This document shows positions 5,914 through 48,046 of a stretch of DNA of 64,000 nucleotides, piece by piece (position 1 is the stretch's first letter; every line of letters starts with the position of its first letter). The stretch is from a bacterium (GTDB lineage Bacteria > UBA8248): assembly GCA_965207065.1 (NCBI GenBank), contig OZ242260.1, positions 416,001 through 480,000 of the forward strand. The letters are read 5' to 3'. Both the position numbers and the translations under genes were made by a program. The notes under the pieces were generated by a model that made no database searches, was not told where the DNA came from, and was given only the letters and a program-made list of their open reading frames with translations.

Positions 5914-6120
5914 CTAGCTCTTGAATCGTCTGAGATTCGTGCTTTTCCCCGTCTCCCGCCGGTTCATCCGCTCCAGCGCAAGGCCGGCTTCGAGCACCTC
6001 CTGATTGAAGCGAAACTCCTCCCAGGAGCATCGGGCCAGCAGGTGCGGGGGAAGGCCATAGGTCTTCGCCTGGAAATGAATGACCGCCAGCAGCTCTTTT
6101 CTACGCCGCCGGAAACGCAT
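5914..6120 (-). CDS. Tail assembly chaperone downstream ('T') segment, possibly expressed by frameshift
   Basis: Short ORF overlapping the end of the upstream chaperone gene in the +1 frame, downstream of the tail tube gene. Confidence 0.5.
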   Translation of the reverse strand: MRFRRRRKELLAVIHFQAKTYGLPPHLLARCSWEEFRFNQEVLEAGLALERMNRRETGKSTNLRRFKS

Positions 6121-6535
6121 CGCCTCCCGGCGCGTCCTCCCCGGGAGCAGGGGCCGCCGCCTCGTTCTGAAGCGCCGTGACCGCCGTGAAGATAGCGTCG
6201 GCATCCGCCGGGGCGAGTTCATGGATGCTCAGTTCATCGGGCAGGCAACGCCCCGGTTCTTTTTCCGTCATCGAGCCGCGCCCGGGAACGAAGCAGCGCC
6301 TCAGGATGCAATGCACCCACTCCCCGGTAAGCGCGTATCGCTCCTCCTCGCCCGCAGCGCCGTTAGCGGCCCCTGCGAACAGCTTGGGATACGCCGCCAT
6401 GTCCAGGAGATTCGGTGCGCGTACAAAGCCCTTGAGCCCCGAGGGCAGGGTGATGGGCTTGCGTCCATGGTTCCTGTATTCTGATATTTCCACGATTCCT
6501 CCCGTTCGTTTTTTCTGAATCAATAGCTTAACCAA
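6101..6535 (-). CDS. Phage tail assembly chaperone ('G') candidate
   Basis: Position directly after tail tube gene, size about 130-144 aa, overlapping downstream ORF; start uncertain. Confidence 0.55.
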   Translation of the reverse strand: MVKLLIQKKRTGGIVEISEYRNHGRKPITLPSGLKGFVRAPNLLDMAAYPKLFAGAANGAAGEEERYALTGEWVHCILRRCFVPGRGSMTEKEPGRCLPDELSIHELAPADADAIFTAVTALQNEAAAPAPGEDAPGGDAFPAA

Positions 6536-6565
6536 ATGAAAAAGAAGCCGCTTGTCGAATAACGA

Positions 6566-7705
6566 CTAGGTGAAGACGATTGCTATCTCGTCATCGCCCG
6601 CATCGCGTGCCAGGCGGAAGGGTGCATCGTAGGTCAGCAGGCCGTCGCGATCCGAAAAACCCATATCCGCGTACTGGCATCTGGGCGCGGTGATGGTGCA
6701 GATGTTCCCGGCCCTGTGGCCGACTTGCACTTTCAGAGGGAGCCTCGCGCCATTTTCCCAATTCTTGAACGCATCATTGGTGGCTATGAGTACGGCCTCG
6801 GGATCGAAGGAACCGGAGGGTGCCCGCCCCGTCACGACGGCGTTGACGTGCCCGCCGGATGCGTTGGCGCTTTGGCGCAGCACCACTTCGTTGTTCATGG
6901 CGAAGCGGATGTTCGTCACGTCGAAATGAAACCCGCCGAACGAAAAGCCGCTCATGAGGACGGGTTCGGGCGTCTGGTCGTCGTAGGACGCGCCGTCAAG
7001 GATCGGTGCGTCGCTCACCTCGAAATCGGCCGCCTCGAATTCCCAATCCACCGTGGGAACGCCATCCAGAGGGCAGTTGATGGAAAAACTCCCCATGCAG
7101 CCCAGATACATGACCCGCAATCCATCGATGAACGCCGTCAGGCAGATTCTCGTATAGCCCGATTTATCGGAGGCGGGCGCGTAAGCGACGGAGGTATCCT
7201 CGACGATGGTTTCCTTCATCGCGCACGCCTTGAACAGCAATCCATAATCCGGCGCGACGCCCGCTGCGCCCGAACCGCGCAACTCGGTGGAGAAAGAAAT
7301 CTGCGCGGAGCGCTTCCCGGGAATCGAGGGAAAAGGCGAGAGGCTCGCATCCTCCACCGCGCGTTCCAGCTGCTCTACGCTGACCTCATGAGAGAAGTTG
7401 CCCGCCCGAAACAATTCCGAGGCAGCCGCCGGTCGATCCAGGAGGCAGGCCGTGCCCGCAGCGGGGGTGGTGTCCCAGGCGTCGTCCACCGTGAGCGTGT
7501 CCGAGGTCGCGTCAAAAATACTCACCTTTCTTCTTTGCCCGACGCCCACTCCCCGGATCGTGCGCAGCACCGAGCCATTCCAGAAATCATCATCCTCGGA
7601 AAGCGCGGCGTCCACGAGGGTGGAGGCATCTGCGGAATCCGCCACGAGTTCTTTCTCTTCCGTCGCGCCAATCGTTTGCCGATCCATCAAAATCGTATCG
7701 CCCAT
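6566..7705 (-). CDS. Phage major tail tube protein
   Basis: ELRGSGAAGVAPDYGLLFKAC and C-terminal GDDEIAIVFT typical of tail tube proteins; AGGAGG SD before ATG 7705. Confidence 0.8.
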   Translation of the reverse strand: MGDTILMDRQTIGATEEKELVADSADASTLVDAALSEDDDFWNGSVLRTIRGVGVGQRRKVSIFDATSDTLTVDDAWDTTPAAGTACLLDRPAAASELFRAGNFSHEVSVEQLERAVEDASLSPFPSIPGKRSAQISFSTELRGSGAAGVAPDYGLLFKACAMKETIVEDTSVAYAPASDKSGYTRICLTAFIDGLRVMYLGCMGSFSINCPLDGVPTVDWEFEAADFEVSDAPILDGASYDDQTPEPVLMSGFSFGGFHFDVTNIRFAMNNEVVLRQSANASGGHVNAVVTGRAPSGSFDPEAVLIATNDAFKNWENGARLPLKVQVGHRAGNICTITAPRCQYADMGFSDRDGLLTYDAPFRLARDAGDDEIAIVFT

Positions 7706-7778
7706 CCCTTGTTCTCCTCCTTTCAGTTTTTTGAGGCGAAGGCGCATCCCTCGCCGGTATTCATTCCCCGTTCTCGTA

Positions 7779-8312
7779 TCAATCCCGCCGAATCCGCTCT
7801 ATCGCCCGGAGCCGGATTTCGGCGTAATGGCAAAGCACGTTTCCAAACGTCCTCAGTTCAATCAGGTCCACCTGCGGAGGCTGAAGGCGCTCCAGCGAGC
7901 GGACGCGCGGGGAGCCTGATTCATCGAGGAGGCGGAGCGTCCTGTCGTCCCGGAAGCGGTCGCAAATCTCCTCAAGCAGTTCCTGAAAGGCCACCTCGCT
8001 GCCCACCGCGTCCTCGGCGCTCATGATGCCGAACAGCAAGAACGTGTGGGTTCGCCTGCTGATGCCGGCGGGCGTGAAGCCACCAGCCGCATTCGAGCCG
8101 ACCGATGCAGCCTCCTCCCCTGCTCTCTCGCGCGTCAGCACCCAGCCCCTGATCTGGGCGAGGCCGTCGCCCGTCTGCCACCGGAAATGGTCCAGGTATT
8201 TCCCCAGGTCGGCCGACCAGCGCTGATAGCTGTGAACCCGCCCTGCCCCCGCCACACTCGATATTTCCGCCAAAATGGCGTCGCCGATTTCTCTGTATCG
8301 TGAATTAGCCAC
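7779..8312 (-). CDS. Phage tail terminator / neck protein
   Basis: Position between HK97 gp10-like gene and tail tube gene; overlaps upstream gene. Confidence 0.55.
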   Translation of the reverse strand: MANSRYREIGDAILAEISSVAGAGRVHSYQRWSADLGKYLDHFRWQTGDGLAQIRGWVLTRERAGEEAASVGSNAAGGFTPAGISRRTHTFLLFGIMSAEDAVGSEVAFQELLEEICDRFRDDRTLRLLDESGSPRVRSLERLQPPQVDLIELRTFGNVLCHYAEIRLRAIERIRRD

Positions 8313-8808
8313 TCATTCTCCTCGCAATCTCATCCACCAGTTCAAGAATGCGCCTATCGATTCGGCTCTGGTTCTCCTCGAAGGCGCCCGCGAACATGCG
8401 ACGCCCCGGTATCCCGTGCCGGGCGATTGATCGGGCAACGAGGAAGGACACCCTCTCGATAGACCCATCGGGCGGCCCCAGTTTGTGGGCCACCCAGCGA
8501 TACAGGGACGTGCCCTCCCTCCAGGGCGGCATTCTGCCGCCCGCCCGACGCCCGAATTCCACGTACCTGGCGTATGGGGTGCGTGAGGCGACCACGCCGC
8601 GCAACACGCTTGGGTTCTCTCCTTTGATTTCGGTGTAAATACTGCCCCTGAGGTTTCCGCTCGCGCCGATGGGCGTTCGCGCTATGACCTCGCGCCTGAG
8701 CATTCCGGTAATCTCGGCCATCGACTCGTGCGCGAGGAGAAGAACCCCCTCCCACGCGATAGCCGGCATCTCCGGCAATTCTTCAAGCGTTACATATCGA
8801 CGAAACAC
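8305..8808 (-). CDS. HK97 gp10-like tail completion protein
   Basis: TPIGASGNLRGSI and YARYVEFGR motifs. Confidence 0.75.
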   Translation of the reverse strand: MFRRYVTLEELPEMPAIAWEGVLLLAHESMAEITGMLRREVIARTPIGASGNLRGSIYTEIKGENPSVLRGVVASRTPYARYVEFGRRAGGRMPPWREGTSLYRWVAHKLGPPDGSIERVSFLVARSIARHGIPGRRMFAGAFEENQSRIDRRILELVDEIARRMSG

Positions 8809-8826
8809 TCCGCCTCTCCTATCCGC

Positions 8827-9537
8827 CTAGCGATCTTCGGACGCGCCGTGCGTGAAATACTCACCGCGCGCCAGTGAAAGAAGCACGTCCCAATCGAGAG
8901 ACGCGCCCGCCGGACCCGCCACTTCGCCTTCTTTGCGGCCGAGATGGTTCTGGTATTTGCGCTCGAGTTCCCGCCCCAGGCGCGTGTATTCCGAGGACTT
9001 GCTCTGGTAGTCCACTGAATCCGCCGCGAGGGTCGGGCTCGAGGACTGGGCGAAGCGGCGGGCCAGGAGGTGACAGCCCTCCGCGGCGGCCAGCCAGGCT
9101 ACGGCGGTCCGATCGTTTTCGGGAATGCTCGTGCGCTCGTCATCGGCCGTGTGCTTGATCGTGTAGAACAGGCGAAGCGTGTGGCCCATTTGAGGAGCGA
9201 AGTACATGAGCCTGAACCTCGCCGCCGGCGTCCCCTTGGCATAGATGATCCAGGAACTCCTTCGCAAAAAGGAGGGCTTTCTCTCCCCCTGGGGATATTC
9301 CACCTCCCGGATGAAGGAGAGGGAATCGTCCCAGTCCTCGGGGAGGGGAAAATCGAACGTCTCGCTATCGCCTGAGTAATCGGCGAACGAGACGAGCGGC
9401 ACGTCTTTGCTGTAGCGCGTGAGCGCCGCGTTCACCAGATCGGCGTAGTCCGCCTCCTCGACGCCGAACTCCCGGGGCAGCGCGCCCGCCTTCAACAAGA
9501 CCTTCACCTCTTTGATGATCGTCTGCCTGCTCGCCAT
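8827..9537 (-). CDS. Phage head-tail adaptor protein
   Basis: Position after the capsid genes; SD present; intact ORF. Confidence 0.55.
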   Translation of the reverse strand: MASRQTIIKEVKVLLKAGALPREFGVEEADYADLVNAALTRYSKDVPLVSFADYSGDSETFDFPLPEDWDDSLSFIREVEYPQGERKPSFLRRSSWIIYAKGTPAARFRLMYFAPQMGHTLRLFYTIKHTADDERTSIPENDRTAVAWLAAAEGCHLLARRFAQSSSPTLAADSVDYQSKSSEYTRLGRELERKYQNHLGRKEGEVAGPAGASLDWDVLLSLARGEYFTHGASEDR

Positions 9538-9580: not shown

Positions 9581-9922
9581 TCAAGTCTTCAGCGCGAGCC
9601 TGGCCTCGAACGTGAACAAAGCCTCCTCCCCGCCGACGGACCACGCGAGCCTGAGCCAGGGGCCGATGTTCGCGAGCATTGCGAGGGTTTTTCCGGCCGA
9701 TGTGATTTGCTCAGGCCTGGTATGGACGAAAGCTACTTCATCATCCGCCGGGCCGGTTTGCACCTCGAAATCAAGCGTGGGCGATGCGCCCGAGACCACC
9801 TTCACGTCGATGAACAAGAGCGCCTCGGTGAAGCGGCTCACTTCGAACGCCGTGCTGCCTCCCGCGGCGACGCGGGCCGCGGGAGGAGCGAGGACTATCG
9901 TGTGGGTTCGCCTGTCGGACAT
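9581..9922 (-). CDS. Small beta-rich virion protein (possible capsid decoration)
   Basis: AAGGAG SD; directly follows capsid gene; alternating beta-strand pattern. Confidence 0.5.
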   Translation of the reverse strand: MSDRRTHTIVLAPPAARVAAGGSTAFEVSRFTEALLFIDVKVVSGASPTLDFEVQTGPADDEVAFVHTRPEQITSAGKTLAMLANIGPWLRLAWSVGGEEALFTFEARLALKT

Positions 9923-9955
9923 GGCTTCTCCTTGATAAGGGCAATCGCCATGCCA

Positions 9956-12034
9956 CTAGGCGGGCGCGCCTCGGTAAAAGCCGCGAAAGTCAAGGACGGC
10001 GCCGCCGTAGACGTGTCTGATCTTGTAGCGAATCTTGTCCGCGCTGAATCCGCTGCCTGCGGAGGGGTTGTCCTCGACGAACAGCTCGGGCTCGCGCATG
10101 TCGTCCATGAAGCCGATTTCGATTGTGTCCATGAGGCCCGGATCGGCGATCAAGTACCAATCGTTCGTCTCGGTGAGTTCGGGCACCCACAAGGGTTCGA
10201 TGCCCAGGCGGTTGATGAAGCTCGGCTGATTGGAGTTCCCGTCCGAGACAACCTTGACGGGCGACTGGGTGACGTCGAATGCCTCTTCGAGCAACTCCGT
10301 GGGGTGGACGAGATATTTCGGCCGAGCCTGGGCCGCTATTTCAACGCCTTCCTCTCCATAAAACGTCTGCTGACCCATCGCCTTGATGGCGGCGACGGCG
10401 CCCTCGTACGTGAGCTCGTTCGCGGAGGTGTTGTTGTGGTCAGCGTGGAACAGCGCATGGCCGTCGTATATGTTGGCATTGGACATGAGAAAATCGAATA
10501 CGAAGCCATTCAGGGTGCGCTGGGCCGCTCGGGCGAGACGCTGGGGAATCATGCGAATCGCGCCCATGTCGTCGTTCTGGATCATCTCCCATGTGAGATC
10601 CTCCACGCCGCCGCGCTTGGCTACGGCGTACGTCACTTCCTCATCCGTCGGGGAGGTAAGCGCCGGATAAGTGGCCTGTTCGGCGACTTTTTGCAGATCG
10701 CCGTAGCCGCCCACACGCACCCGGCGGTTCGTACGGAAATCCTTAACGGGCGTCACGGAAGAGGCGATCTTCTTCCACTGGTGAAAGCGCTCGTCCCTGA
10801 AATCGCGCAGCATGGCGCGGCGGATGGAATCTCCAAAAGCCTCGCCCCACGTGCTCGTCTGCAAGGAGGCGGAGAGGCGCCGCACCCCGTTCCAGTCCTC
10901 GGCGGCGCGGTGATAGTGGAACGTCTCTGCGAAGAACTGGCGCGGGGTCAGGCGATGTCCCGTGAAATCCTGAAACGCCTCGCTCATGAAGCGATAGGGG
11001 CGTTCGCCGTCTACCACCTCGTCGCGCGAACCCCAGAGCCCGTCGAGAGCCGCTTTCTTGCGGTCCGCCTCGTCGCGCATTACCTCCGCACGCGCGCCGA
11101 AACCACGGAGCGCGCCGCTCGCCGTGAGTTTTTCCAGCGTGGCCGCCTCAACCCGGATCGCCTCTTCGATCTCCTCTTCTGTAAAACTCCCGTCCCCGAA
11201 CTGGGCGAGCATCTTCTCCTGAACGGCTTCGGGCAACGCGGAGGCCGTCAGTTTCTGAGCGAGCAACCTGCGAGCCGCAGCCCCGGTTTCGGTTCCATCC
11301 TTCATGGTGTTTCCTCCTTTTTCCTTCAAGTCCAGCTCGAGACCAGCGTCTTCACAAGCCGCGAGGAACTGTTGCGGCGTCCAGGCATCGCCGAGCCTCT
11401 TGCCCGATTCGGGCGCCATGCTCTTGAGTTTCTTTCCGAGCTTTTCGAACATTTTCACCTCCGATTGAATGGAATGATTGGCGGCGAGACCCAGAATCCC
11501 GCCCCCGAGCTTGCCTTTGTGCACGACGTCGACGGAGTGGACCGCCAGAATCTTTTCGAAATGCAAAACGAGCCCATCGGCCTCCTCGCGGAACTCCGCC
11601 TGCGCGAGCACGTCGAAGGAAAAGCCAAAGGGCTCCTCAAGACCCCGGGCCAGCGCATCGTGCGCCAGCGCCTGAAACCAGGCCGCTGATCGCGAAACCG
11701 CAAACGTGCTCAGAAGCCCCTCCTCGCCCATGCGGACCTTGCGGTGCCAGCCGACCAGGTTCCTGATGTCGGGACCGCCCGAGGCGGCGTGGTTGGCAAA
11801 GGCTTGCGCACCCTCGAACAGGGGAGCGGCCTCGCGCAGAACGTCGCGGGGCAGGAACCACTCCCCGTCCCTCGAGTAGCCGGCGCGCGCGATCAACACC
11901 TCGAAATCCCAGGCTTCATCCGGCGGCTGCGCTTCTTCCGCAACCGCGCGGATGAGGTGGCCATGCAGCCTTAAGGTATGAGAATCCTTCTGCGCCTCGG
12001 CGCGCGCCCACATACGGTTCAACCATTTTTTCAA
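9956..12034 (-). CDS. Fused prohead protease-scaffold-major capsid protein (Mu-like)
   Basis: N-terminal protease motifs FANH and HSVDVV; C-terminal capsid motifs VKDFR, LTWEMIQNDDMGA, WYLIAD, YKIRHVYGGAVLDFRG; TTG start with AGGAG SD. Confidence 0.85.
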   Translation of the reverse strand: MKKWLNRMWARAEAQKDSHTLRLHGHLIRAVAEEAQPPDEAWDFEVLIARAGYSRDGEWFLPRDVLREAAPLFEGAQAFANHAASGGPDIRNLVGWHRKVRMGEEGLLSTFAVSRSAAWFQALAHDALARGLEEPFGFSFDVLAQAEFREEADGLVLHFEKILAVHSVDVVHKGKLGGGILGLAANHSIQSEVKMFEKLGKKLKSMAPESGKRLGDAWTPQQFLAACEDAGLELDLKEKGGNTMKDGTETGAAARRLLAQKLTASALPEAVQEKMLAQFGDGSFTEEEIEEAIRVEAATLEKLTASGALRGFGARAEVMRDEADRKKAALDGLWGSRDEVVDGERPYRFMSEAFQDFTGHRLTPRQFFAETFHYHRAAEDWNGVRRLSASLQTSTWGEAFGDSIRRAMLRDFRDERFHQWKKIASSVTPVKDFRTNRRVRVGGYGDLQKVAEQATYPALTSPTDEEVTYAVAKRGGVEDLTWEMIQNDDMGAIRMIPQRLARAAQRTLNGFVFDFLMSNANIYDGHALFHADHNNTSANELTYEGAVAAIKAMGQQTFYGEEGVEIAAQARPKYLVHPTELLEEAFDVTQSPVKVVSDGNSNQPSFINRLGIEPLWVPELTETNDWYLIADPGLMDTIEIGFMDDMREPELFVEDNPSAGSGFSADKIRYKIRHVYGGAVLDFRGFYRGAPA

Positions 12035-12131
12035 GGGGAACTCCTTTCTCGCTGGTCTTTCAGAAATTCAACTTCCGGCGATGCGCCGGAGACCGCCGCC
12101 TGGTTAAACAAGGAGCGGGTGCAACGGCGAT

Positions 12132-12182
12132 AATTTAGGGCAAGGAGACTCGAACGCGGGCCGGGCAAATGCGGGGAAATGC
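12132..12182 (-). promoter_or_regulatory. Shared phage-module promoter, copy 1 (head-tail module)
   Basis: Minus strand reads GCATTTCCCC GCATTTGCCC -N25- TAAATT. Confidence 0.75.
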
Positions 12183-12377
12183 GCATCCGGCGTCTTTTTT
12201 TGCGGAATTTTGAAATTGCTAATTGAAAATTTTAAGAAAATGCGGTAAATTACGGAAAATTCTGGAGTTGCGGATGATGCGGGTGGTCCCGGCGTCTACC
12301 AATTCTGGATACTTCGCCCGCCACTCAGGAATAGCCTGAATTCGCCGAGCAAAAAGACCGCCCCTTGAACAGGACGT

Positions 12378-13688
12378 ATGAGGTTTGATCTCATGTGGGG
12401 CGTCGCTCAACCGGTCTTGAATTTCATCCAGAAACTCTCCTGGAACCATATGCTCGACATCGGGATCATGTGGTTCCTGCTTTACCAGGTCTATATTCGC
12501 TTCAAAGGCACCCAGGCGATGCGCCTCCTCGTGCGCGTGTTCGGAGTGTGGCTCATCTATCTCGCCTCCCAGGCCGCGGGTCTGCACCTGACCTCGTTTC
12601 TCCTTTGGGCCATCTGGATCGCCGTGCTCATCCTGTTTCTCATCAATTTCCACGGCGAGATCCAAAAGATATTCTTTCAACTCAACCCGGTGCGCAGAAT
12701 CTCAATCCTGCTGCGCCGGGCGATGCGAATCCGCCTGCCGGACGTAAGCGTCGCCACCATCGCCCAATCCGCTTTTTCGCTCTCGGAGAAGCAGATGGGC
12801 GCCATCATCGTTGTGGAGCGCCGGGATTTGACCGACTCCCTGCTGAGAAGTCCGGGAGAGGAGATCGAGGCGGACATCCAGCCGGCGCTGCTGGAAACCA
12901 TTTTCTTCAAGGGAGCGCCCTACCACGACGGCGCCGCCGTCGTTCGCGAGAACAAGATCTCGCGCGTGGGATGCGTATTGCCCCTTTCAGATAACCGCGC
13001 CCTGCCGCCGGAGTTCGGCACGCGCCACAGGGCGGCGGTCGGCATCACGGAGCGGTCCGACGCCCTGGCGATCGTGATATCCGAGGAACGCGGAGAGATT
13101 ACATGCGTGGAAGGCAGCCAAACAAAGACGATAGATAATGAGGAAGAACTCGCCTCCTGGCTCACGGCGCGGCTGCGCGCGGCCCGCGAGACGGGACAGA
13201 CGATGGGACGCATATCGCTCCGCCACGTTTTCGAGAACTGGCGGCCCAAGCTCGCCGCCCTGGCCGCCGTCATATTCCTCTGGTCGCTCGGCGGGCAGGA
13301 AAACCAGAATCCGCAGAATTTCTTCCCGCAACTCGAAAGCAAGGTGGAGGAGGAATTCCGCGTCCGCGTCCATTATTACAATGTTCCGAGCGGCGTCACC
13401 CTGCCGGCCGATGCGGCGAAAGAAGTCAAAATACGCATCAGGGGCAGGCGCGATCTGCTCAATTACATCGACGCCACCCGCCTGCGCGTGAACGTGAACC
13501 TCGCCAAAATGACGCCCGGCGCGCATTCGCGCACGCTGTCGGGACGCGACATCGACCTGCCAAACGGTCTCGAATTCCTGAGCGCGGAGCCCAAGGCCCT
13601 GGATTTGAATCTCGCCAAGGCGCCGGCGCCTGAGAAAATGACGAAATCGAGCGCCTCCACCGAGACGCCGGAGTCCTCAAACTTTTAA
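12378..13688 (+). CDS. dacA: Membrane diadenylate cyclase (CdaA/DacA) with C-terminal YbbR-like domain
   Basis: Three N-terminal TM helices, HDGA and GTRHRAA DAC motifs, ISEERG. Confidence 0.9.
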   Translation: MRFDLMWGVAQPVLNFIQKLSWNHMLDIGIMWFLLYQVYIRFKGTQAMRLLVRVFGVWLIYLASQAAGLHLTSFLLWAIWIAVLILFLINFHGEIQKIFFQLNPVRRISILLRRAMRIRLPDVSVATIAQSAFSLSEKQMGAIIVVERRDLTDSLLRSPGEEIEADIQPALLETIFFKGAPYHDGAAVVRENKISRVGCVLPLSDNRALPPEFGTRHRAAVGITERSDALAIVISEERGEITCVEGSQTKTIDNEEELASWLTARLRAARETGQTMGRISLRHVFENWRPKLAALAAVIFLWSLGGQENQNPQNFFPQLESKVEEEFRVRVHYYNVPSGVTLPADAAKEVKIRIRGRRDLLNYIDATRLRVNVNLAKMTPGAHSRTLSGRDIDLPNGLEFLSAEPKALDLNLAKAPAPEKMTKSSASTETPESSNF

Positions 13689-13763
13689 GGCCCTTCTTTT
13701 CAGATACTTGAATTTCTACCTTCAGAAAAATTTGCTTTTTTCGCTTAAAATACCGATATTGAA

Positions 13764-13897
13764 TGAACCGGGCTACAGTCGCTGAGACGTCCAGGAGCTT
13801 TGACGAGCACTAAGGGCGAACCATTTTCGATGGTACTTGGCTGGCCCAAGTGAGGCGGCAAGGAGCCGACACAGAAAACGGCTCCGGCCCGGGTTCA
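13764..13897 (+). ncRNA. Candidate structured RNA (riboswitch-like), class unassigned
   Basis: Ends pair (TGAACCGGGC/GCCCGGGTTCA) and enclose several internal stems; intergenic. Confidence 0.4.
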
Positions 13898-14082
13898 AGG
13901 AACCCTTCAACAGAAGGAGGATGCGATGATATCAACGATAAATCGCTTCAGCCGTGCGGAAACGCCACCCTCCCCGGCCCCATCGCGTCAGCCGGGCGGG
14001 GAGGAAGACAAAGGCTGATGCACAAATAAAGGCGACAAAACGCCTTCGTGAGGTGAGACGAGTTCTCACCCTGAAAAAGAGC

Positions 14083-14127
14083 AAAAAAAGAGAGCGGGGT
14101 GCAACGCCCCGCTCTTCTTTTTTTTTC
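14083..14127. terminator. Bidirectional intrinsic terminator
   Basis: A-run, agagcgggg/ccccgctct stem, T-run. Confidence 0.8.
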
Positions 14128-14322
14128 CTAGCTCTTGGCCTCGAGTTTCCGCATCTCGATTTCGAGTTGCTGGAGCCTGTTCTTGATCATGTTGAAGTCG
14201 TACTCGAACCCCTCGGCGAGCAGCGTGAGACCATGATAGAGCTGGTGCTTTTCCGGCTCTTCCTCCGCGTTCACCGAATCGAGCATCTCGGCGAAAACCT
14301 CTCTGGCATGATGAAAGCTCAA
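14128..14322 (-). CDS. Small hypothetical protein with coiled-coil C-terminus
   Basis: ORF with purine-rich SD ending at the terminator. Confidence 0.55.
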   Translation of the reverse strand: MSFHHAREVFAEMLDSVNAEEEPEKHQLYHGLTLLAEGFEYDFNMIKNRLQQLEIEMRKLEAKS

Positions 14323-14457
14323 AACGCCTTCCCCCTTTTTGAATGAGAACGCACATTAAGAAGCCATAAATCTTTTGCAGGAAGAATCCCGCTCCTATCT
14401 TTGCTAGAATCCATCGCACCGACAAATAAACCACATCGCAAACGAGGAGTCATCTTC

Positions 14458-14955
14458 ATGCCGGAAAGACCAAACACGCCGCAAGTCATCCTCCGCCACA
14501 TTCAGGGCACCCAGCTTCAGATGCTCACCACCACGGGCAAACACTCCTACGTGCTCGATGAGCCCGAAACCAGAGGCGGCACGGACCTGGCCGCCACGCC
14601 GTTCGAGTTCTTCATCGCAGGGCACGCGGGCTGAGGCCTCTACACGCTGCTGGGAGCGGCGAAGGCCAAGGGCATCCATATCGACGACGTGGAGGTCCAC
14701 GCGGAGTTCAAACGGAATATTTCACCCAAATTTCATTCGGATTACCACGCGGACCCCGAGCGGAGAAAACTCGCCATCGGCGTCATCCGTACGAGCTATT
14801 ACATCCACGGCGACGTAACCGAAGAGCAAAAGGCGGAACTTCTCGATGAACTTGAGAACTGCCCCATCCACAACACGCTGATGACGCCGCCCAGGCTCGA
14901 GGAGCGGATCGTCGTTCTGGAGAAGGATGAAACCGCGCCCATAGAGATTTCGTAA
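14458..14955 (+). CDS. OsmC-family protein, probable selenoprotein (UGA at 14632-14634)
   Basis: DEPETRGGTD..TPFE..AGHAG-U-G, then in frame to ENCPIHNTL; hairpin follows the UGA. Confidence 0.75.
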
Positions 14956-14984
14956 GGGCGGGGAAAGAGCCGCTCGCTAAATTA

Positions 14985-15224
14985 GGGGTTCTTGAAAAAG
15001 TTCTCATCGGTCGGTCGGAATCGACCACTGCCGTCATTCCGGCGAAAGCCGGAATCCATTTTCGGATGCGGGTGAATGAACGGCGGCGTTTCATTCCCCA
15101 CCAATGCGCGGGAACCCTGACGAAAGGCAAAAGGCGTAAAAATAGATTCCGGCTTTCGCCGGAATGACGGTGAATACTCTCGATGGGGGCAACAACCCCA
15201 TTGAGGGACTTTTTCAACAACCCC
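14985..15224. mobile_element. MITE-like element with IS1182-like ends carrying a CGTCATTCCGGCGAAAGCCGGAATC palindrome pair
   Basis: ggggttcttgaaaaagt ... actttttcaacaacccc; inverted REP copies at 15031-15058 and 15143-15170. Confidence 0.65.
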
Positions 15225-15279
15225 AATAATGGGAGCCTTGAACTTCGGCAGGAAAGGAAGACACCCTTCAAAATGAGTC

Positions 15280-15753: not shown

Positions 15754-15959
15754 TTCCGCATCTCCCGTTGAGTTCCACCTTTCCGCCGATGTTTTCTCTT
15801 CTCTGCGTCTATATTTTCCCTGATTCCCCTCATCTTAACTTGTTTTTGGAATGGTTTGCATTTATTTTGCAGGCACTCCATTTATCGTCTCCAAAGAGCG
15901 GAGCCTGAAACGAGAGAAACCCTGCTGCGCGAAATTCGCAATCCAATAAGGATTTGATT

Positions 15960-24612: not shown

Positions 24613-24663
24613 AATATAGGGGTTGGTGCCGGCAAACCATGACGCGCAATTGCGGGGAAATGC
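24613..24663 (-). promoter_or_regulatory. Shared phage-module promoter, copy 2 (terminase-portal module)
   Basis: Minus strand reads GCATTTCCCC GCAATTGCGC -N25- TATATT. Confidence 0.75.
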
Positions 24664-41189: not shown

Positions 41190-41762
41190 TCACTCCACCT
41201 GCTCCTCGAGCTTCCGGGTCGCCTCCTCGACGATTTCGCATACCTTGTCCATAATCTCGGGGTGCTCGCGGAACGACTCGCGCACCTCTTTCACGATCGC
41301 CAGCTTGGCGGCGGCGAAACCGTCCTCGTACTGGAGCCTCAGCTTCTCGGCCGATATACGGCTGCGCTCGAGCCCGTTCACCATCCGGGCGAGTTTCTCC
41401 GGCGTCAGGCGCTCGAAGGATTCCTTCCCCATCTGCGAGACGGCCTCGACCGCCTGCGTCATCAGCATCCGCCGCGCGGCCGCGGCCACCTTCTCTCCCG
41501 GGTCCCTGCCCTCGCCATCGTACGCCATGACTTCCTCGATCAGCTCATCCACCATGGCTTCCACCCGCCTGGTCTTGCGGATACCCTCTAGCAGGCGATT
41601 GTTGCGCGTCCCGATGGAGCCGAGCGTTATCTTCTCCCCGGTCTCCTTCTCGAAAGCCTCGGCCACTTCCTGGTAGGTCTTCCCCTCAGCGAGCATGGTA
41701 TCGACGATTTTCTCCGCGCCATATTCCACTACTTTCGATCTGCGCCCCCGCCTCCTCTCCAT
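41190..41762 (-). CDS. Mu gp27/DUF3486-like protein (probable small terminase)
   Basis: RGRRSKV N-terminus, TYQEVAE helix-turn-helix, helical C-terminus. Confidence 0.7.
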   Translation of the reverse strand: MERRRGRRSKVVEYGAEKIVDTMLAEGKTYQEVAEAFEKETGEKITLGSIGTRNNRLLEGIRKTRRVEAMVDELIEEVMAYDGEGRDPGEKVAAAARRMLMTQAVEAVSQMGKESFERLTPEKLARMVNGLERSRISAEKLRLQYEDGFAAAKLAIVKEVRESFREHPEIMDKVCEIVEEATRKLEEQVE

Positions 41763-42094
41763 TACAGATCCCCCACGAGGATGTCCGGCGAGGCGGATAC
41801 GGCGCCTTCGAGCAGGCCGCGCCCCTTGCGGGTCAGGTGCGCCTCGTAATCCGTCAGCAGGCGGCCGAACCCGCCCGGGGTGCGCTTTTCCACCAAACCC
41901 CGCCCGGCCAGATCGTCCACGAAGGCCTCGAGCGTCTCGCGGCCGAGGGGCGCGCCGTCCTCATGGTGGCCCGCCTCGCGCAGCGCGCTCCAAAGGAGAA
42001 GGCTCCCCACACTCGATTTCTCCTGAAATGCATTCTGGTAATAAAGCGTCTTCAAAATGTCGCCGCGCAGGACGCGGGCCGCCAGTTCGTTCAC
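41762..42094 (-). CDS. Mu gp26-like winged-helix protein
   Basis: RGDILKTL, LAGRGLV, AHLTRKGRGLLEG; coupled to the gp27-like gene. Confidence 0.6.
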   Translation of the reverse strand: MNELAARVLRGDILKTLYYQNAFQEKSSVGSLLLWSALREAGHHEDGAPLGRETLEAFVDDLAGRGLVEKRTPGGFGRLLTDYEAHLTRKGRGLLEGAVSASPDILVGDL

Positions 42095-42239: not shown

Positions 42240-42290
42240 AGTATAGAAGGCGGCGCGGGTTCGGGGGGTGCGGCAAATGCGGGCAAATGC
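42240..42290 (-). promoter_or_regulatory. Shared phage-module promoter, copy 3 (gp26/gp27 module)
   Basis: Minus strand reads GCATTTGCCC GCATTTGCCG -N25- TATACT. Confidence 0.75.
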
Positions 42291-42996: not shown

Positions 42997-43422
42997 TCAC
43001 CGCGTCTTTCCCGTGAGTTTCTCGACGGTGCGAAACGCGCCCAGACCCAGCATCCCCAGGGTGAGTTCGAGAAGTCCCTCCGCCGAGACGGGATAGGGCG
43101 CGAGCTCGCCGCTCATCAGCACCTGCCGCGTCCAGAGCCAGGCGCCCAGGGCGTACTGGGGGATGAAATAAAACGCGAGCGATACCCCGCAGGTCCACAG
43201 GATGAACGGCCTGCCGCCTGCGACGAACACGCTGCGGTGGGCGGCTTCGATTTTATTGATCTCGTTCTGGGCCTCTAAGGGCCGCATCATCAGCTTTTGC
43301 TTGATCGCCTCGGCCGCGCGCCGCTCATCGGGCGTTTCGACGAACCTGTCGATGACGTTGGCGACGCCCTCCGCCGCCGTGACGACGCCGCCGCCGATGA
43401 GCTTTTCCAAAAAGGCCATCAC
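42997..43422 (-). CDS. 3TM holin-family protein
   Basis: EINKIEAAHRSVFVAGGRPFI and GMLGLGAFRTVEK; adjacent to lysozyme. Confidence 0.8.
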   Translation of the reverse strand: MMAFLEKLIGGGVVTAAEGVANVIDRFVETPDERRAAEAIKQKLMMRPLEAQNEINKIEAAHRSVFVAGGRPFILWTCGVSLAFYFIPQYALGAWLWTRQVLMSGELAPYPVSAEGLLELTLGMLGLGAFRTVEKLTGKTR

Positions 43423-43832
43423 GCGCTCCTCATGCTATCGGCGACCCTTCCCGCCCGCGCGGGGAGGTCCCTCGCGTAAACCGAATCGAGCGCCTCCGAT
43501 GCCGCGCGCGCATAATCCCCCTCCGCGAGCGCGGCCCACATCTTCCTGAACCCCAGGAGGTTCGGCACGCCCATGTTGTAGGCCATGTTCAAGACGGCGC
43601 GCCGTGCTCCGGGCCTCAGATTCTCGTACACCTCCCCCACACGCGAGTTTTCGAGTTCGCGCCCCATCAGAGACAGCCGATGCCGGAGGAGCAGTTCGGC
43701 TTCGGCTTCCGATATCCCGTCTTCGAGCAGCGTTCCGTAGCCGATGGTCTTCTTGCTCCTGGCGTCGAGATACACCACCGGCACGAAACCCTCCTCGCGC
43801 TTGATCTCCTCTACGAGCACGTCGGTGAGCAT
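43419..43832 (-). CDS. Phage lysozyme (T4-like, GH24)
   Basis: EEG..VYLD..TIGYG, NMAYNMG, FRKM. Confidence 0.85.
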   Translation of the reverse strand: MLTDVLVEEIKREEGFVPVVYLDARSKKTIGYGTLLEDGISEAEAELLLRHRLSLMGRELENSRVGEVYENLRPGARRAVLNMAYNMGVPNLLGFRKMWAALAEGDYARAASEALDSVYARDLPARAGRVADSMRSA

Positions 43833-44050
43833 GATTTCTCCTCATTCACAAGCGAATCCCCGGCTTTGGCCACCTGTTGCAGGACGCGCAGGAGCGCCGC
43901 CGCGCCCTTGCGCGCGCCCGAGCGTTGCGCATAAGCCTGACTCGAGGCCAGGACCCGTCCGTTCCTCGCACGAACGCGGAAGCGATGCCGACCGGATCTG
44001 TCCCGGAAAATCTCGACGGGGCGATGCTTCGCGTTCTTTACGGCCGCCAT
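43811..44050 (-). CDS. DUF1508/YegP-family protein
   Basis: EIFRDRSGRHRFRVRARNGRVLASSQAY. Confidence 0.75.
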   Translation of the reverse strand: MAAVKNAKHRPVEIFRDRSGRHRFRVRARNGRVLASSQAYAQRSGARKGAAALLRVLQQVAKAGDSLVNEEKSCSPTCS

Positions 44051-44187
44051 ACATAACCCCCCAGGAAAAAGCCCAGGCTCACGAGAAATGCGCCCACGGC
44101 GATGAGGCGCAGGACGGTATGTTTCTCCTTCGCCCAGCGCCACAGGAAGGCGTCCGTTCTTTTTTCGATTTCATTTTTCTCTGACAT
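44038..44187 (-). CDS. 49-aa single-TM protein, first gene of the lysis module (not in the ORF track)
   Basis: GAGGAG SD; MSEKNEIEKRTDAFLWRWAKEKHTVLRLIAVGAFLVSLGFFLGGYVWRP. Confidence 0.6.
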   Translation of the reverse strand: MSEKNEIEKRTDAFLWRWAKEKHTVLRLIAVGAFLVSLGFFLGGYVWRP

Positions 44188-44253: not shown

Positions 44254-44314
44254 ATTCTAGGCCTTGATCCCGCCGGGCCGATGACGGAAAATGCGGGCAA
44301 CTGCGGGGTGATGC
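44254..44314 (-). promoter_or_regulatory. Shared phage-module promoter, copy 4 (lysis module)
   Basis: Minus strand reads GCATCACCCC GCAGTTGCCC GCATTTTCCG -N25- TAGAAT. Confidence 0.72.
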
Positions 44315-45005: not shown

Positions 45006-45404
45006 ATGAAGAAGCGTATCTGCGCGAGCGTGGCGTTCATGTTCTTCGTATCCGGTTGCGCGGGTTCGGGGCCCAACCCGGTGGCGCGCTACACGCCTGC
45101 CGATGAGAAGCGAAACTGCGCCTCGCTCAAGTCGGAAATCAAGGCCATCAAGAAGGACATCGCGAAAAAGACGACCGAGCGAGAGAACAAGACGTTCCAG
45201 AACCTCACCCTGGGCGCTGCAGGCGTATTCCTGGTCGTTCCGTGGTTCTTCATGGATCTGAAGGGCAAGGAAGCGGGCGAGGCCGAAGCGCTCGAACACC
45301 GAAACGCCGCACTACGCCGGGTCGCCTTCGTCAAGGGTTGCAACGAGCCGCTTCCGGTCGTCACGCATCAGAGAAAGCCCAAAACGGAAGGAAAAGCGAA
45401 ATAG
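45006..45404 (+). CDS. Hypothetical lipoprotein
   Basis: Lipobox VSGC. Confidence 0.7.
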   Translation: MKKRICASVAFMFFVSGCAGSGPNPVARYTPADEKRNCASLKSEIKAIKKDIAKKTTERENKTFQNLTLGAAGVFLVVPWFFMDLKGKEAGEAEALEHRNAALRRVAFVKGCNEPLPVVTHQRKPKTEGKAK

Positions 45405-45487
45405 ACGCAAGCGCGGTTCGAGCCCCCTTTTCTGCTTTGCCTTATACCCTAGAAACATATTCGCCGCCGTACTACAGGGGTCACGTC

Positions 45488-46339
45488 ATGCCCAGAAACA
45501 ACTCAAAAAATCTTTTCATCAAGTCAATTTTCATCGCCGCCTTGATGCTCAGTTCAGTAAGTATCCCTCGCGCGGACGCCAGAGAATGCACCTATGGCCC
45601 CTACACGGGGCGCTGCCGCGACATCGGGCTCATGCGCTCGGTCAAGCGCGACGCGGAAAAACGCGTCTCCGCACGCTCCATCCTCTGGGTGGAGGCGGGC
45701 TATCTCTCGGCTGACGAGGCGAGCGATCTGCACCAAAGAATCGACGCAGGGATAGTGGCCGTCGAGAAGTTTCTGGGATTCAAGTTCTCACGCGAGGCCT
45801 ACGGGCAGGAGAAAATCGAGTTCTTCGTCCACAGCCGGCGCGCGCCCTCCCACACCATCACGGCCTACAGTCCGCGAAAATACATGCACCCCGTGGTGTT
45901 TCTCTCCTACGCCAAAGGAAAGAGAACGCCCTATCTCCACGAGACGGTCCACATCATCGCCTGGGACTGGAACACGCTCTGGTTGAAAGAAGGCCTGGCG
46001 GTTCACCTGAACGACCGCCTGGGCGGCTACGCCGCCTTCCCCAACTTCGGCGAGTCCGTGGATGTATTCGCGGGCCGGGTGCTCGCGCGCGAGTTTCCGC
46101 CCGCTACGAACGCGCTCGACCTGGTGGGCGAGAACGGAATTCCAAAATTCGGGGACCGGCGCGTGCGCCGCATGTTCTACATTCTCTCGGGCTCTTATGT
46201 GGCCTATCTCCTGCGCGAGTGGGGGGTGAGTAAGTTCATGCGCGTCTACGCCGCCAAGGACGCGGAGGCCGCGATCCTCAAAGAGACGGGAAAACCCGCG
46301 TGGCAGTGGAAGGAGGCGTGGCTGGGCGGGGTGAAGTAG
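45488..46339 (+). CDS. Secreted gluzincin-like protein
   Basis: Signal peptide; HETVH followed by WLKEGLA. Confidence 0.6.
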   Translation: MPRNNSKNLFIKSIFIAALMLSSVSIPRADARECTYGPYTGRCRDIGLMRSVKRDAEKRVSARSILWVEAGYLSADEASDLHQRIDAGIVAVEKFLGFKFSREAYGQEKIEFFVHSRRAPSHTITAYSPRKYMHPVVFLSYAKGKRTPYLHETVHIIAWDWNTLWLKEGLAVHLNDRLGGYAAFPNFGESVDVFAGRVLAREFPPATNALDLVGENGIPKFGDRRVRRMFYILSGSYVAYLLREWGVSKFMRVYAAKDAEAAILKETGKPAWQWKEAWLGGVK

Positions 46340-46428
46340 GTCAATCCCGACCGGGGAGGGATTGTGAGTATCGAGAGAGGAATTGCGAATTCACCAAAAG
46401 AAAAGCCCCCCGGATTTCCCGAGGGGCT

Positions 46429-47169
46429 TTATTTCATATCGGTCTTCTCTGCTAGAAGCCGGGGTCCTCGTCGTGTGTGTGGAGCATCGCTTGGTCTCCT
46501 TTCAGCGGCCAGGTAATTACAAAACCACCTAAGTGGTTGAAGTATTCCACTTCCGAGATAAATTTCAAGACCTTTGTAGAGACGGTTGCCCCTTCGGTTT
46601 CTCAGGTCTGCAATCCATGGCTCGAATACGTCATAATAGCGTAAGACATTTGTCTGAAACAGTTCGCGGATGATGGCTTCATTGACAAAGCCTTTATCGA
46701 CCAACACCGCCAAGTCTTCGAGATAATTCAAAACATTCGTTATGTTCAATTCGAGAATTTCATCATCCTTGATTTTCTCCTGTATTATTCTCAGCCTCTC
46801 CTCTCTCGGCTTGGCCGCTATGGGTTTGATCAGCCCGATGACGGCTTTTTTCGAGTCGAAAAAACTTGCGGTGTTCCATTCAGAGGTAAGGGACATCGTG
46901 CGGGTCATTTGCTCGGATTCCACATTCGCATAAACGCTTTGGGCAATATAAAAGGCGCTGACAATCGCGGCTGCGGCGCCGACGGCAATGGCGATAAACG
47001 TCGCCAACTCCTTATGAGCAGGCAAGAAGAAATAGACACCTACAATCACACCGACGAAGATAAAGGCAACCACGCCAATATGAACCGTGAACCTGCGCTC
47101 GAATTTAAGATTGAAATCGAATGCCTTGGAAACTTCTCTCGCCAATTGCGGACCCTCACACGGACACAA
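46429..47169 (-). CDS. DUF4760-like membrane protein, lower GC, possible 3' frameshift
   Basis: Two TM helices; VLNYLEDLA..VDKG..E and PWI..LR motifs; start uncertain. Confidence 0.55.
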   Translation of the reverse strand: MCPCEGPQLAREVSKAFDFNLKFERRFTVHIGVVAFIFVGVIVGVYFFLPAHKELATFIAIAVGAAAAIVSAFYIAQSVYANVESEQMTRTMSLTSEWNTASFFDSKKAVIGLIKPIAAKPREERLRIIQEKIKDDEILELNITNVLNYLEDLAVLVDKGFVNEAIIRELFQTNVLRYYDVFEPWIADLRNRRGNRLYKGLEIYLGSGILQPLRWFCNYLAAERRPSDAPHTRRGPRLLAEKTDMK

Positions 47170-47298
47170 CCATCCGCCAACTAATTCGGGTCCTCTGGCA
47201 ACTCGTTTGAGTGGTTAATCGTGCGTCAACTATACCTTTTCGTCCGAAATCTCAACCTCACCCTGCATTGCTCCTGCCCAATAGCGATGGAATGGATT

Positions 47299-47403
47299 GT
47301 TGCTCCCTATCCATCAGCCACAACTCCACCTTGAGCAGTTGCAGCCCCTCCCTCATCAGCCGCAATCCCTCCCTGATCAGTCGCAACCCCTCCCTGATCA
47401 GTC
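47299..47403. repeat. 21-bp tandem repeat, three good and two degenerate copies
   Basis: gcaacccctccctgatcagtc-like units at 47341, 47362 and 47383. Confidence 0.75.
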
Positions 47404-47411
47404 GGGATTGA

Positions 47412-47801
47412 CTACTCCCGCATGCCGCCGAACTTCCATTCCAGATCGAGCGGGAAATCCTCCGTCATCTTCTCGACGTAGGCGAGCACGTCCTCGCGGC
47501 GGAAGCGCGCGCTTTTGAAGGAGGGGTGGTTCCCGGGCTGCCGGACGCCCGCGCGCGGTGGCGGGCGGCGCAGGTAGACGGGCCGGAGGCAGGGCGCGTC
47601 GCTCGCGCAGTCCTCGGCGATGATGGCGTCGAGCGTGCGGTAGCTCTTATAACCGAGCACCCTGGCGAGCATGGGCTTGGTGAGAAACGCCTCTTCCTCG
47701 AGAATGCGGCGCGGGGTTCTCGGATCGAGCGGGGCGTGTTTCGTTCGCCTCTTGCGCCGCTTGCCCGCAGTCGTCTTGTCGCGGGGCTTTCCGGGCGGCA
47801 T
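47412..47801 (-). CDS. Xis/MerR-like winged-HTH DNA-binding protein
   Basis: FLTKPMLARVLG..YRTL helix-turn-helix and ARFRREDVLAYVE wing/helix. Confidence 0.6.
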   Translation of the reverse strand: MPPGKPRDKTTAGKRRKRRTKHAPLDPRTPRRILEEEAFLTKPMLARVLGYKSYRTLDAIIAEDCASDAPCLRPVYLRRPPPRAGVRQPGNHPSFKSARFRREDVLAYVEKMTEDFPLDLEWKFGGMRE

Positions 47802-48046
47802 CAGCAGAGCGCCTCTGTGAGCGGCGTGAGAGATACGTCGCGGCGGCGGGTTCTCCTGGCCCTGATGAGGGCGTCGGCGCGGGCGCGGGCGGATTCTACG
47901 TTCGGGAAGATGAGGCTTACGCTTCTCTCGCGTGCGAGGTCGCGGTAGACGAGAAGCGCCGCCTCTTCGGGGACGCCGAAGCCCTCGTCCACCAGATCGG
48001 CCGGCGTGCGCTCATGGGTTCCGATGAAGGAGACGGCCTCGTTCAT
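47801..48046 (-). CDS. Small hypothetical protein coupled to the HTH gene
   Basis: GGAGG SD; TGATG stop/start overlap. Confidence 0.55.
   Translation of the reverse strand: MNEAVSFIGTHERTPADLVDEGFGVPEEAALLVYRDLARERSVSLIFPNVESARARADALIRARRTRRRDVSLTPLTEALC

Follow-up and report, generated by a model that had tools for sequence, protein, structure and literature searches.

The window examined here is a 64,000-nucleotide stretch of the single-contig, metagenome-assembled genome (4.48 Mb, approximately 61% G+C) of an uncultured marine bacterium (G000:C1:416001-480000), and it carries four islands of phage-derived genes that appear to belong to a system resembling a gene transfer agent (GTA). All four islands are on the minus strand and encode, from right to left, lysis proteins (island A), the small terminase subunit (island B), the large terminase and portal protein (island C), and the proteins from capsid to tail tube (island D). 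The islands had been delimited by a sequence-only reading of the window, and family assignment by Pfam and PHROG searches confirmed both their positions and their contents. Coordinates below are those of the window, and genes lie on its minus strand unless otherwise noted. Synonymous divergence (dS) and the ratio of nonsynonymous to synonymous divergence (dN/dS) were estimated pairwise by the Nei-Gojobori method (NG86) against the relatives G002, G001, G007, and G020, with 10 ambiguous or overlapping open reading frames (ORFs) excluded.

Island D begins with a capsid gene (9956-12034) whose product of 692 amino acids (aa) is a fusion protein. Residues 391-688 match PF25209 Phage_capsid_4 (E 7.4e-47), far more strongly than the borderline match to Mu gpT (20.3 bits vs. 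a cut-off of 20.1), and a sequence comparison with solved chains places a Mu GpT-domain protein closest (E 0.019). The N-terminal 390 aa match phrog_29592 and resemble Peptidase_S78 clusters in the Atlas, a resemblance that is a lead only, and this part is probably a prohead protease and scaffold. The fusion gene is single-copy in the genome and has a dN/dS of 0.15-0.19. Downstream lie a head or neck protein of 113 aa (9581-9922; no Pfam or PHROG match, 66-84% identity in the genus, dN/dS 0.26-0.38) and a 236-aa protein (8827-9537) that has no family match and is a head-tail connector candidate by position; its homologs come after the capsid in G027 and G032, which belong to another family of the same class, and in 18 of 80 viral contigs carrying this capsid family. 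A tail completion or neck protein (8305-8808; PF04883 HK97-gp10_like, E 2e-6; phrog_5, E 8e-13) comes next, and then a 177-aa neck or tail terminator candidate (7779-8312), again named by position and free of family matches, with homologs at the same position in G027, G032, and 11 of the 80 viral contigs. The tail tube protein (6566-7747, 393 aa) matches PF18906 Phage_tube_2 (E 3.3e-14) and phrog_290 (E 1.8e-21) and has a dN/dS of 0.11-0.21. The island ends with two overlapping ORFs (6101-6535, 144 aa; 5914-6222, 102 aa) without family match, named tail-assembly chaperones because they follow the tube gene. In G001, G007, and G020, conservation of the second ORF is confined to its non-overlapping stretch (residues 33 or 43 to 100-102), as expected for a frameshift extension. 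At this locus (5914-6535), the second ORF is in the +1 frame relative to the first, the usual frame being -1.

Island C carries the large terminase as two genes, followed by the portal gene. The ATPase half (TerL-N, 23504-24562, 352 aa) is a separate gene matching PF05876 GpA_ATPase (E 2.6e-15) and is the sole match in the genome to this family, the only terminase family searched. The nuclease half (22866-23507, 213 aa) matches positions 358-549 of the 576 positions of phrog_675 (E 6.5e-10), and the portal protein (21514-22863) matches phrog_10963 (E 3e-46; dN/dS 0.10-0.22). The ATPase ORF stops at 23504 and the nuclease part is read in the -1 frame, with its start codon overlapping the ATPase stop codon (ATGA). 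The ORFs of the islands had been described as intact from the letters alone; the terminase consists of two overlapping genes, not one intact ORF. Among 71 database matches to TerL-N, full-coverage homologs with at least 52% identity are 338-393 aa long, five partial-coverage matches are 194-408 aa, and homologs at 47% identity or less have the fused length of 541-596 aa. In an alignment, the ATGA or GTGA start-stop overlap and a GGAGG 7 bases upstream are kept in G000, G002, G001, G007, and G020. We rejected decay as the explanation of the frameshifted terminase, given this overlap and Shine-Dalgarno (SD) sequence conserved in five species and the ATPase-only length of close homologs. The same two observations indicate that the terminase split is an old, conserved feature of the lineage, kept in homologs with as little as 52% identity, and it is an oddity open to direct testing. 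Thus both halves of a lambda GpA-type enzyme, which has ATPase and nuclease in one polypeptide, are present as two genes; a survey of the titles and abstracts of the literature yielded no report of a two-gene large terminase. The split may have loosened packaging specificity.

Island A comprises a small membrane protein of 49 aa as its first gene (44038-44187; read from the sequence, with an SD-like GAGAGGAGAG upstream), a DUF1508 (YegP-like) protein of 79 aa (43811-44050; PF07411, E 6.9e-9) of which no homolog was detected in G001, G007, or G020, an endolysin of the phage lysozyme type (43419-43832; PF00959, E 9.5e-11; dN/dS 0.19-0.27), and a holin with three transmembrane segments (42997-43422; PF11351 GTA_holin_3TM, E 3.1e-11; dN/dS 0.09-0.20). 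Island B consists of the small terminase subunit (TerS, 41190-41762; PF11985 Phage_Mu_Gp27, E 7e-7; phrog_426, E 8e-11) and, 5' of it, a 110-aa protein (41762-42094) that had been called gp26-like. The latter has no Pfam or PHROG match, is 80-90% identical in G002, G007, and G020 and 73% identical in G041, and has a dN/dS of 0.16-0.22. Islands A and B are 0.9 kb apart, and the gap carries a membrane-protein gene on the plus strand that island-free relatives also have.

The genes between the islands are those of a bacterial chromosome. They encode a DAC/YbbR cyclase, a deaminase, two luciferase-like monooxygenases (LLM), a DUF520 protein, an ammonium transporter, an adenylate cyclase, parts of an ABC transporter, an M24 peptidase, and two S15 peptidases, and the sequence-only reading had listed amtB, yajQ, an ABC transporter, dacA, and LLM enzymes among them. 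The DAC cyclase, DUF520, and CofE (cofE) genes are single-copy in the genome. Neither PF00589 (integrase) nor PF00665 (rve) had a match in the window, consistent with the earlier statement that no integrase or transposase is visible there, or within approximately 100 kb of the fifth island described below; the sole rve match in the genome lies at 921 kb, far from all islands. The ORFs scanned between and beside the islands are host genes, and no repressor or replication gene is seen among them, with no family search aimed at replication genes. No sheath gene was found among the tail genes (tube, chaperones, and tape measure only), sheath families not having been searched genome-wide.

The remaining tail genes that the sequence-only reading had proposed to look for elsewhere were found in a fifth island (E) at G000:C1:2480133-2486976, 2.0 Mb from the window, by querying G000 with the downstream genes of the contiguous clusters in G027 and G032. 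It consists of six minus-strand genes, three of which (2,484,026-2,486,976) are homologs of genes that follow the tape measure in those clusters. None of the six has a Pfam match, and the five tail-tip proteins have no PHROG match either. The last gene (559 aa) encodes the tape measure, as indicated by its match to phrog_1535 (E 9.4e-8), its Ala/Gly-rich composition with two GEAGPE motifs, and a C-terminus similar (E 1.2e-4) to a 485-aa gene in canonical tape-measure position in G041. Pfam searches of the genome with PF10145 and PF20155 gave no tape-measure match, and phmmer searches with the tape measures of G027 and G032 gave nothing below E 0.068. With the tape measure added, the gene set is complete for a long non-contractile tail. 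In no complete genome is island E linked to the main region, the distance being 0.26 to 2.4 Mb, and the same Ppx/GppA gene borders it in the four complete genomes examined. In G001 (L055, approximately 12100-14790) and G007 (L056, approximately 12400-15050), the tape measure lies approximately 2.4 kb from the tail-tip genes and has its own copy of the promoter motif described below, an arrangement that is a further split of the fifth island. A D12-class adenine methyltransferase gene (G000:C1:3678675-3679550; L068 675-1550, minus strand) resembles the gene that ends the G027 cluster (E 1e-6); it is linked to none of the islands, and nothing ties it to the system.

All five blocks are preceded by a copy of one promoter-like element, and the fifth island thus carries the same signal as the four in the window. 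The motif GCATTTSCCCGCATTTGC consists of two direct repeats 10 bases apart and is followed 27 bases later by a -10-like hexamer (TAAATT, TATATT, TATACT, TAGAAT, and TATATT in the five blocks), with no conserved -35 element. In the window, minus-strand copies stand before island A (44254-44304; GCAGTTGCCCGCATTTTC, 27 bases, TAGAAT), island B (42240-42290; GCATTTGCCCGCATTTGC, 27 bases, TATACT), island C (24613-24663; GCATTTCCCCGCAATTGC, 27 bases, TATATT), and island D (12132-12182; GCATTTCCCCGCATTTGC, 27 bases, TAAATT), four motif matches where 0.02 were expected. G002, G007, G001, and G020 retain motif and hexamer before islands A, C, D, and E, with a diverged 27-base spacer between the two, and the promoters of islands C and D are kept in G016 too. 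The latter genome, of 8 Mb, has only three sites at up to two mismatches, one 132 nt ahead of the capsid gene, one 85 nt ahead of TerL-N, and one where the tail-tip island begins. Variant promoters occupy the capsid position in the distant lineages L045, L047, L052, and L053 (e.g., GAATTTCCCCGAATTTCC, 27 bases, TAGATT), and in the corresponding region of G041, six of the seven motif copies immediately precede blocks of the system (capsid run, tape measure and tail tip, terminase, and small terminase). Since each structural block has its own copy of an activator-type promoter, one signal could switch on all blocks.

The relatives retrieved via the capsid are metagenome-assembled genomes that carry the labels Nitrospinota, Nitrospinaceae, or Candidatus Tectomicrobia. 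One set of 40 relatives, including 22 other genomes of the genus, served for the search of every marker. The capsid, TerL-N, TerS, a tail-tip protein, and P0074 (a candidate regulator described below) were each found in 20 of these 22. The portal was found in 21 when a remnant in G010 is counted and is intact in 19, being broken into three pieces in G016, and the lysozyme was found in 18, the exceptions being G009, G010, G016, and G019. In G002, G007, G001, and G020, complete genomes examined in full, the stretch corresponding to approximately 2.9-49 kb of the window is collinear and keeps host and phage genes in the same alternation. Coordinates show that the split order is kept in further complete genomes, so that at least seven independent single-contig assemblies have the interleaved order. 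The conserved split synteny that the sequence-only reading had suggested checking is therefore present, and it bears on whether the layout could be an assembly artefact or a mix of unrelated prophage fragments. In favor of such an error, the genome is metagenome-assembled and has an estimated contamination of 4.95%; against it, the same order recurs in these independent assemblies, one promoter precedes all blocks, and the homologs stand together in G041 and in viral contigs. Misassembly is excluded by the shared layout, and we regard this explanation as having practically no chance of being right.

Selection on the phage genes resembles that on their neighbors. Against G002, the median dN/dS was 0.205 for phage genes and 0.118 for host genes (median dS 0.31 vs. 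0.35). The corresponding medians were 0.254 and 0.251 against G001 (dS 0.67 vs. 0.63), 0.260 and 0.256 against G007 (0.65 vs. 0.63), and 0.257 and 0.244 against G020 (0.75 vs. 0.71). Individual phage genes range from 0.1 to 0.45, like host genes, and their ORFs are intact in approximately 20 species with dS to G000 of up to 0.6-0.75. The earlier proposal that selection rather than decay has shaped the islands agrees with these ratios, which are well below 1. As for congruence with the host, another suggested check, the dS of phage genes matches that of their neighbors, and the divergence of unlinked islands is correlated (bit-score ranks of unlinked markers, rho 0.55-0.86, which is descriptive only as the genomes are kin and not independent). 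Vertical inheritance and purifying selection on structural genes, both of which mark a GTA, are thus present.

Two genomes of the genus have lost the system. In G010, host genes are 77-95% identical and the backbone is collinear, and all four window islands and the genes at 47412-48046 are gone. What is left are remnants of the portal (26-27 aa), TerS (25 aa), and DUF1508 (31 aa), part of DUF520, and a degraded island C motif beside the portal remnant. In G009, host genes are 70-88% identical and the backbone is island-free, with no remnants at the thresholds used. The fifth island was not found in either genome. Loss is all-or-none rather than piecemeal. Because G001, G007, and G020, which are as distant as G009, keep everything, and G010 is far closer, the two losses look independent, as judged from these distances rather than from a species tree.

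The arrangement in other lineages suggests how the layout may have arisen. G041, a complete genome with a capsid 68% identical, has the pieces between the same flanks as G000 (cofE and a 110-aa gene on the left, LysR and a 1524-aa gene on the right). Its order is tail-tip genes, the 485-aa tape-measure-like gene, then chaperones, tube, neck, capsid, and portal as one run, followed by 10.4 kb of unrelated genes, the terminase, 9.5 kb of other genes, the small terminase block, and a P0074 homolog; no lysozyme or holin homologs were found in G041 at a 40% identity filter. In 62 of the 80 viral contigs with this capsid family, the portal gene adjoins the capsid gene, and neck and tube genes follow in order in subsets of them. 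In G027 and G032, the portal, capsid, and neck homologs lie in contiguous phage-like clusters. The adjacency of portal and capsid in viral contigs, together with the joined blocks of G041, implies that the scattered layout of the genus is derived. Host genes would have separated the portal from the capsid, and the block with tail tip and tape measure would have moved elsewhere. These arrangements fit one prophage fragmented in place, as had been proposed from the window alone, and the head and tail blocks that are still joined in G041 speak for it in particular. The virion, packaging, and lysis genes appear to derive from a single tailed phage with a non-contractile tail and now occupy at least six chromosomal sites. 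Stages of domestication can be seen side by side, from contiguous (viral contigs, G027, and G032) through partly split (G041) and scattered (the genus) to decayed or deleted (G023, G010, and G009).

The four islands first recognized are real, and beyond island E there is a sixth unit, P0074 (47412-47801, 129 aa), a candidate DNA-binding regulator proposed because it co-occurs with the islands and has a weak fold match. The protein, usually encoded beside the lysis island, shows 79-92% identity in the 20 genomes of the genus that have it, stands at the right end of the G041 region, and has a dN/dS of 0.24-0.25; it was not found in G009 or G010, both of which are island-free. Its AlphaFold2 (AF2) model has a mean predicted local distance difference test (pLDDT) score of 68. 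In a VIA-align comparison, the nearest structures were winged helices of the excisionase/MerR/BldC type, weakly matched at Z 4.7-5.4, where similarity may mean no more than a common arrangement. Foldseek against the PDB gave no match at E <= 1e-3, the protein has no Pfam or PHROG family, and a database search with it found only 26 clusters, all unnamed or labelled hypothetical. We hypothesize from this model and distribution that P0074 binds the promoter repeats and regulates the system. An 81-aa ORF (47801-48046), whose stop overlaps the P0074 start by one base, is conserved in G002 (78%), G020 (66%), and G041 (49%); it was not found in G010 or G009 and has no Pfam or PHROG match.

We consider it probable that these genes constitute a phage-derived particle gene set domesticated by the host lineage, either GTA-like or PBSX-like. 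Judged on gene content, inheritance, and layout, the system looks GTA-like. The particle genes lie in the chromosome and no integration functions were matched near them. They are not packageable as one unit, with 42 kb of the window interleaved with host genes and one block 2.0 Mb away. As for host-controlled expression, a common motif stands before every block and also at many non-phage sites of G000. A small DNA-binding protein, possibly P0074, would bind the repeats in a subpopulation of cells, and heads, tails, and terminase would then be made. DNA would be packaged, and as genes scattered over 2 Mb cannot be packaged as one unit, it would have to be mostly host DNA. Holin and lysozyme would finally release the particles. 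The gene set thus suggests that the host makes phage-like particles, perhaps moving DNA between cells.

A more specific version of this proposal is tentative, and we put it forward as a possibility that may well prove wrong: that the system represents an independent, undescribed GTA lineage of uncultured bacteria of the Nitrospinota/Tectomicrobia type, many of them sponge-type bins, with a particle genome in at least six co-regulated pieces, a multi-copy late promoter inherited from the ancestral phage, an activator site that escaped into the host genome, and a split terminase. Cutting into co-regulated pieces would have been possible within this scenario because the ancestral phage already had several activator-dependent late promoters. 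The titles and abstract openings of the literature contained no report of a GTA in Nitrospinota or Tectomicrobia. If true, it would matter because few independent GTA lineages are known, mostly understood from Alphaproteobacteria, and this one would add a different phylum that is uncultured and largely host-associated. The findings also suggest a rule for dispersal, by which multiple pre-existing activator-dependent promoters keep a late region coordinated.

The same evidence for selection and co-regulation would be expected if the domesticated remnant were kept for a use other than gene transfer, such as PBSX-type particles for killing or lysis, whose heads would contain host DNA without delivering it, programmed lysis setting free DNA or cell contents in an animal host, or interference with infecting phages. 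This proposal shares the domesticated particle system with the one above and departs from it solely in what the particles are finally used for. In its favor, conservation is especially strong in the lysis genes (dN/dS of the holin 0.09-0.20). However, both halves of the large terminase, the small subunit, the portal, and the capsid are under purifying selection, which would be unnecessary for a pure tail-type bacteriocin or lysis device, and the tail-tip adsorption genes are kept. We regard a non-transfer use as rather unlikely.

Several observations weigh against a functional domesticated system, and some of them bear on whether the islands are instead an old defective prophage that is functionless and decaying slowly because deletion is slow. 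Decay does occur, in that the portal is broken and the lysozyme was not found in G016, and the lysozyme was not found in G019 either. In the sister genus G023, the portal, the nuclease part of the terminase, and a tail-tip gene are each fragmented and a capsid was not detected, and some G041 genes are in two pieces, through decay or assembly error. DUF1508 is an exception among the phage genes, with a dN/dS of 0.73 against G002 that indicates weak constraint. The lack of integrase matches (replication genes were not searched by family), the scattering of the genes, and the total loss in two genomes would also suit slow decay. Set against it are the intact ORFs in approximately 20 species, their host-like dN/dS, the promoters kept while spacers diverge, the conserved coupled start of the second terminase gene, and the all-or-none loss, which together make a decaying prophage very improbable. 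Further points of this adverse kind concern the data as such: NG86 values are rough at this codon bias, all relatives used are metagenome-assembled genomes, a look-up of RNA runs listed none that holds the region, six tail-tip and neck genes are without family and have roles assigned by position alone, and the role of P0074 is drawn from co-occurrence and a fold match of Z 5.4 at best.

The remaining adverse points concern the promoter, which the sequence-only reading had described as one per island. A copy does stand upstream of each block, but the motif is not private to them. The island B copy was found in G000 and G002 only and not, at up to three mismatches, in G001, G007, and G020. G000 has 94 sites at up to two mismatches, 67 of which have an nAnnnT hexamer at the same spacing, so the motif is not specific to the system. 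Some of these sites have an ordinary gene, such as that for pyruvate dehydrogenase E1, a few hundred bases away or less, and approximately 27 of the 94 are in a composite intergenic repeat of approximately 300 bp. Given the number of sites, the repeat copies, and the sites at ordinary genes, the motif could belong to a wider host regulon.

The number of copies varies among genomes. At up to one mismatch there are 67 in G002, 33 in G001, one in G010, and none in G009 or G032. Exact copies number 33 in G007, one in G020, and none in G016, G023, or G024. At up to two mismatches, the counts are three in G016, six in G020, eight in G010, one in G009, and none in G024. The view of the motif as a general host promoter was revised in light of the zero or one site (up to one mismatch) in G009 and G010 and the finding that the sites in G016 are all island sites. 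Copy number as a strict correlate of the islands was likewise rejected, as G020 and G024 have islands and few or no consensus copies. From these distributions, we read the motif as a phage late-promoter element that was later multiplied in some genomes; the reverse, in which a host regulon captured the islands, could also apply. A direct-repeat promoter element that varies from 3 to approximately 100 copies per genome among close relatives is an oddity that can be tested.

Compared with described systems, the islands resemble in organization the GTA of Rhodobacter capsulatus (RcGTA), which also has phage-derived head, tail, packaging, and lysis genes at several loci, no integration or replication genes, vertical inheritance, purifying selection, and occasional loss. 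Its holin family, PF11351, is named for GTA release and is the one found here, and P0074, as a separately encoded DNA-binding activator, would parallel GafA. The differences are considerable. RcGTA has a single core of approximately 15 kb plus accessory loci and is associated with CtrA boxes, whereas the system here, known from genes alone, belongs to another phylum and has its structural core in pieces, a PF25209 capsid fused to a protease/scaffold part, a lambda GpA-type terminase in two genes, other tail genes, and a direct-repeat promoter motif. No relation to RcGTA is apparent beyond the holin family. To our knowledge, no described GTA combines a dispersed structural core, a two-gene terminase, and this promoter logic. 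PBSX of Bacillus is a conserved, non-replicating element whose heads hold host DNA and which lyses its producer. Unlike the genes studied here, which are dispersed over 2 Mb, PBSX sits at a single contiguous locus that also encodes a repressor and a sigma-like factor, its tail is contractile, and its sequence is unrelated to theirs.

The resemblance to phage Mu that had been noted from the window stands in part. The order of the Mu late region (regulator, lysis, small terminase, large terminase, portal, protease/scaffold, capsid, and tail) is shared, the small terminase is of the Gp27 family (the only one of the Mu families to pass its Pfam cut-off clearly, 30.2 vs. 28 bits), and the capsid has a weak similarity to gpT. 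Mu has several late promoters that depend on C/Mor, lack a -35 element, and need a site just upstream; several late promoters of this activator-dependent kind would explain the continued expression of separated pieces. However, neither the transposase (MuA/B) nor the contractile tail of Mu is seen here: there is no transposase and no sheath or baseplate gene among those found, sheath families not having been searched genome-wide, the terminase is lambda GpA-like, and the promoter has a direct repeat rather than the dyad site of Mu. P0074 has no detectable similarity to Mor/C in Pfam, PHROG, or Foldseek searches. The label Mu-like is thus weakly supported; it suits the gene order, which is generic, and one or two families, though neither the terminase nor the tail. 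The capsid fusion also occurs in free phages and prophages (IMG/VR contigs of approximately 40-45 kb, and the clusters in G027 and G032), which share the portal, fusion, neck, tube, and some tail-tip homologs at 24-44% identity and in the same order. They are contiguous and on virus-sized contigs, whereas here housekeeping genes intervene, conservation is genus-wide, and the rest of the phage genome is lacking.

Some other features of the window and genome were recorded. The composite repeat mentioned above, which may be a mobile element, a binding array, or a set of convergent promoters, is bounded on one side by GCATTT...GCATTTGC plus CAGAAT and on the other by the inverted motif with TATGAT or TATGCT, both facing an AT-rich core of repeated ATTTATCGAA units. 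Examples are C1:2145595-2145836, 1863729-1864047, and 2573428-2573858, and the core alone occurs at 48200-48290 of the window. G020 has few copies of the repeat, with a different core (GGGAAAACCC repeats). An 81-aa ORF listed at 48043-48288 (minus strand) is the translated AT-rich core, with the same peptide-like strings at other copies, and is probably not a gene. A 1.5-kb stretch at 26983-28473, with long ORFs on both strands, no Pfam match, and a strongly positive GC skew (0.14-0.15), is absent at that place from G002, G001, G007, G020, G010, and G009 and is an insertion specific to G000, between amtB and the adenylate cyclase gene. Patches of lower G+C (0.53-0.57) at 13700-15800 and 45242-47169 are poorly conserved or absent in relatives; they carry a cytidine deaminase-like gene, a DUF4760 protein (G+C at third codon positions, GC3, 0.53), and a 365-aa ORF without family. 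Both patches were likely acquired recently. The genome has 54 tyrosine-recombinase matches, many of them in adjacent trios with identical scores at four or more places (e.g., G000:C1 34559-36935, 902899-905275, 1151174-1153550, and 2323717-2326093), and this recurrence suggests a multi-copy recombinase-trio element. Finally, a plus-strand gene at 19607-20707 encodes a 366-aa protein without Pfam family that has 14 paralogs at 36-46% identity, several of them in tandem at 1.43 Mb.

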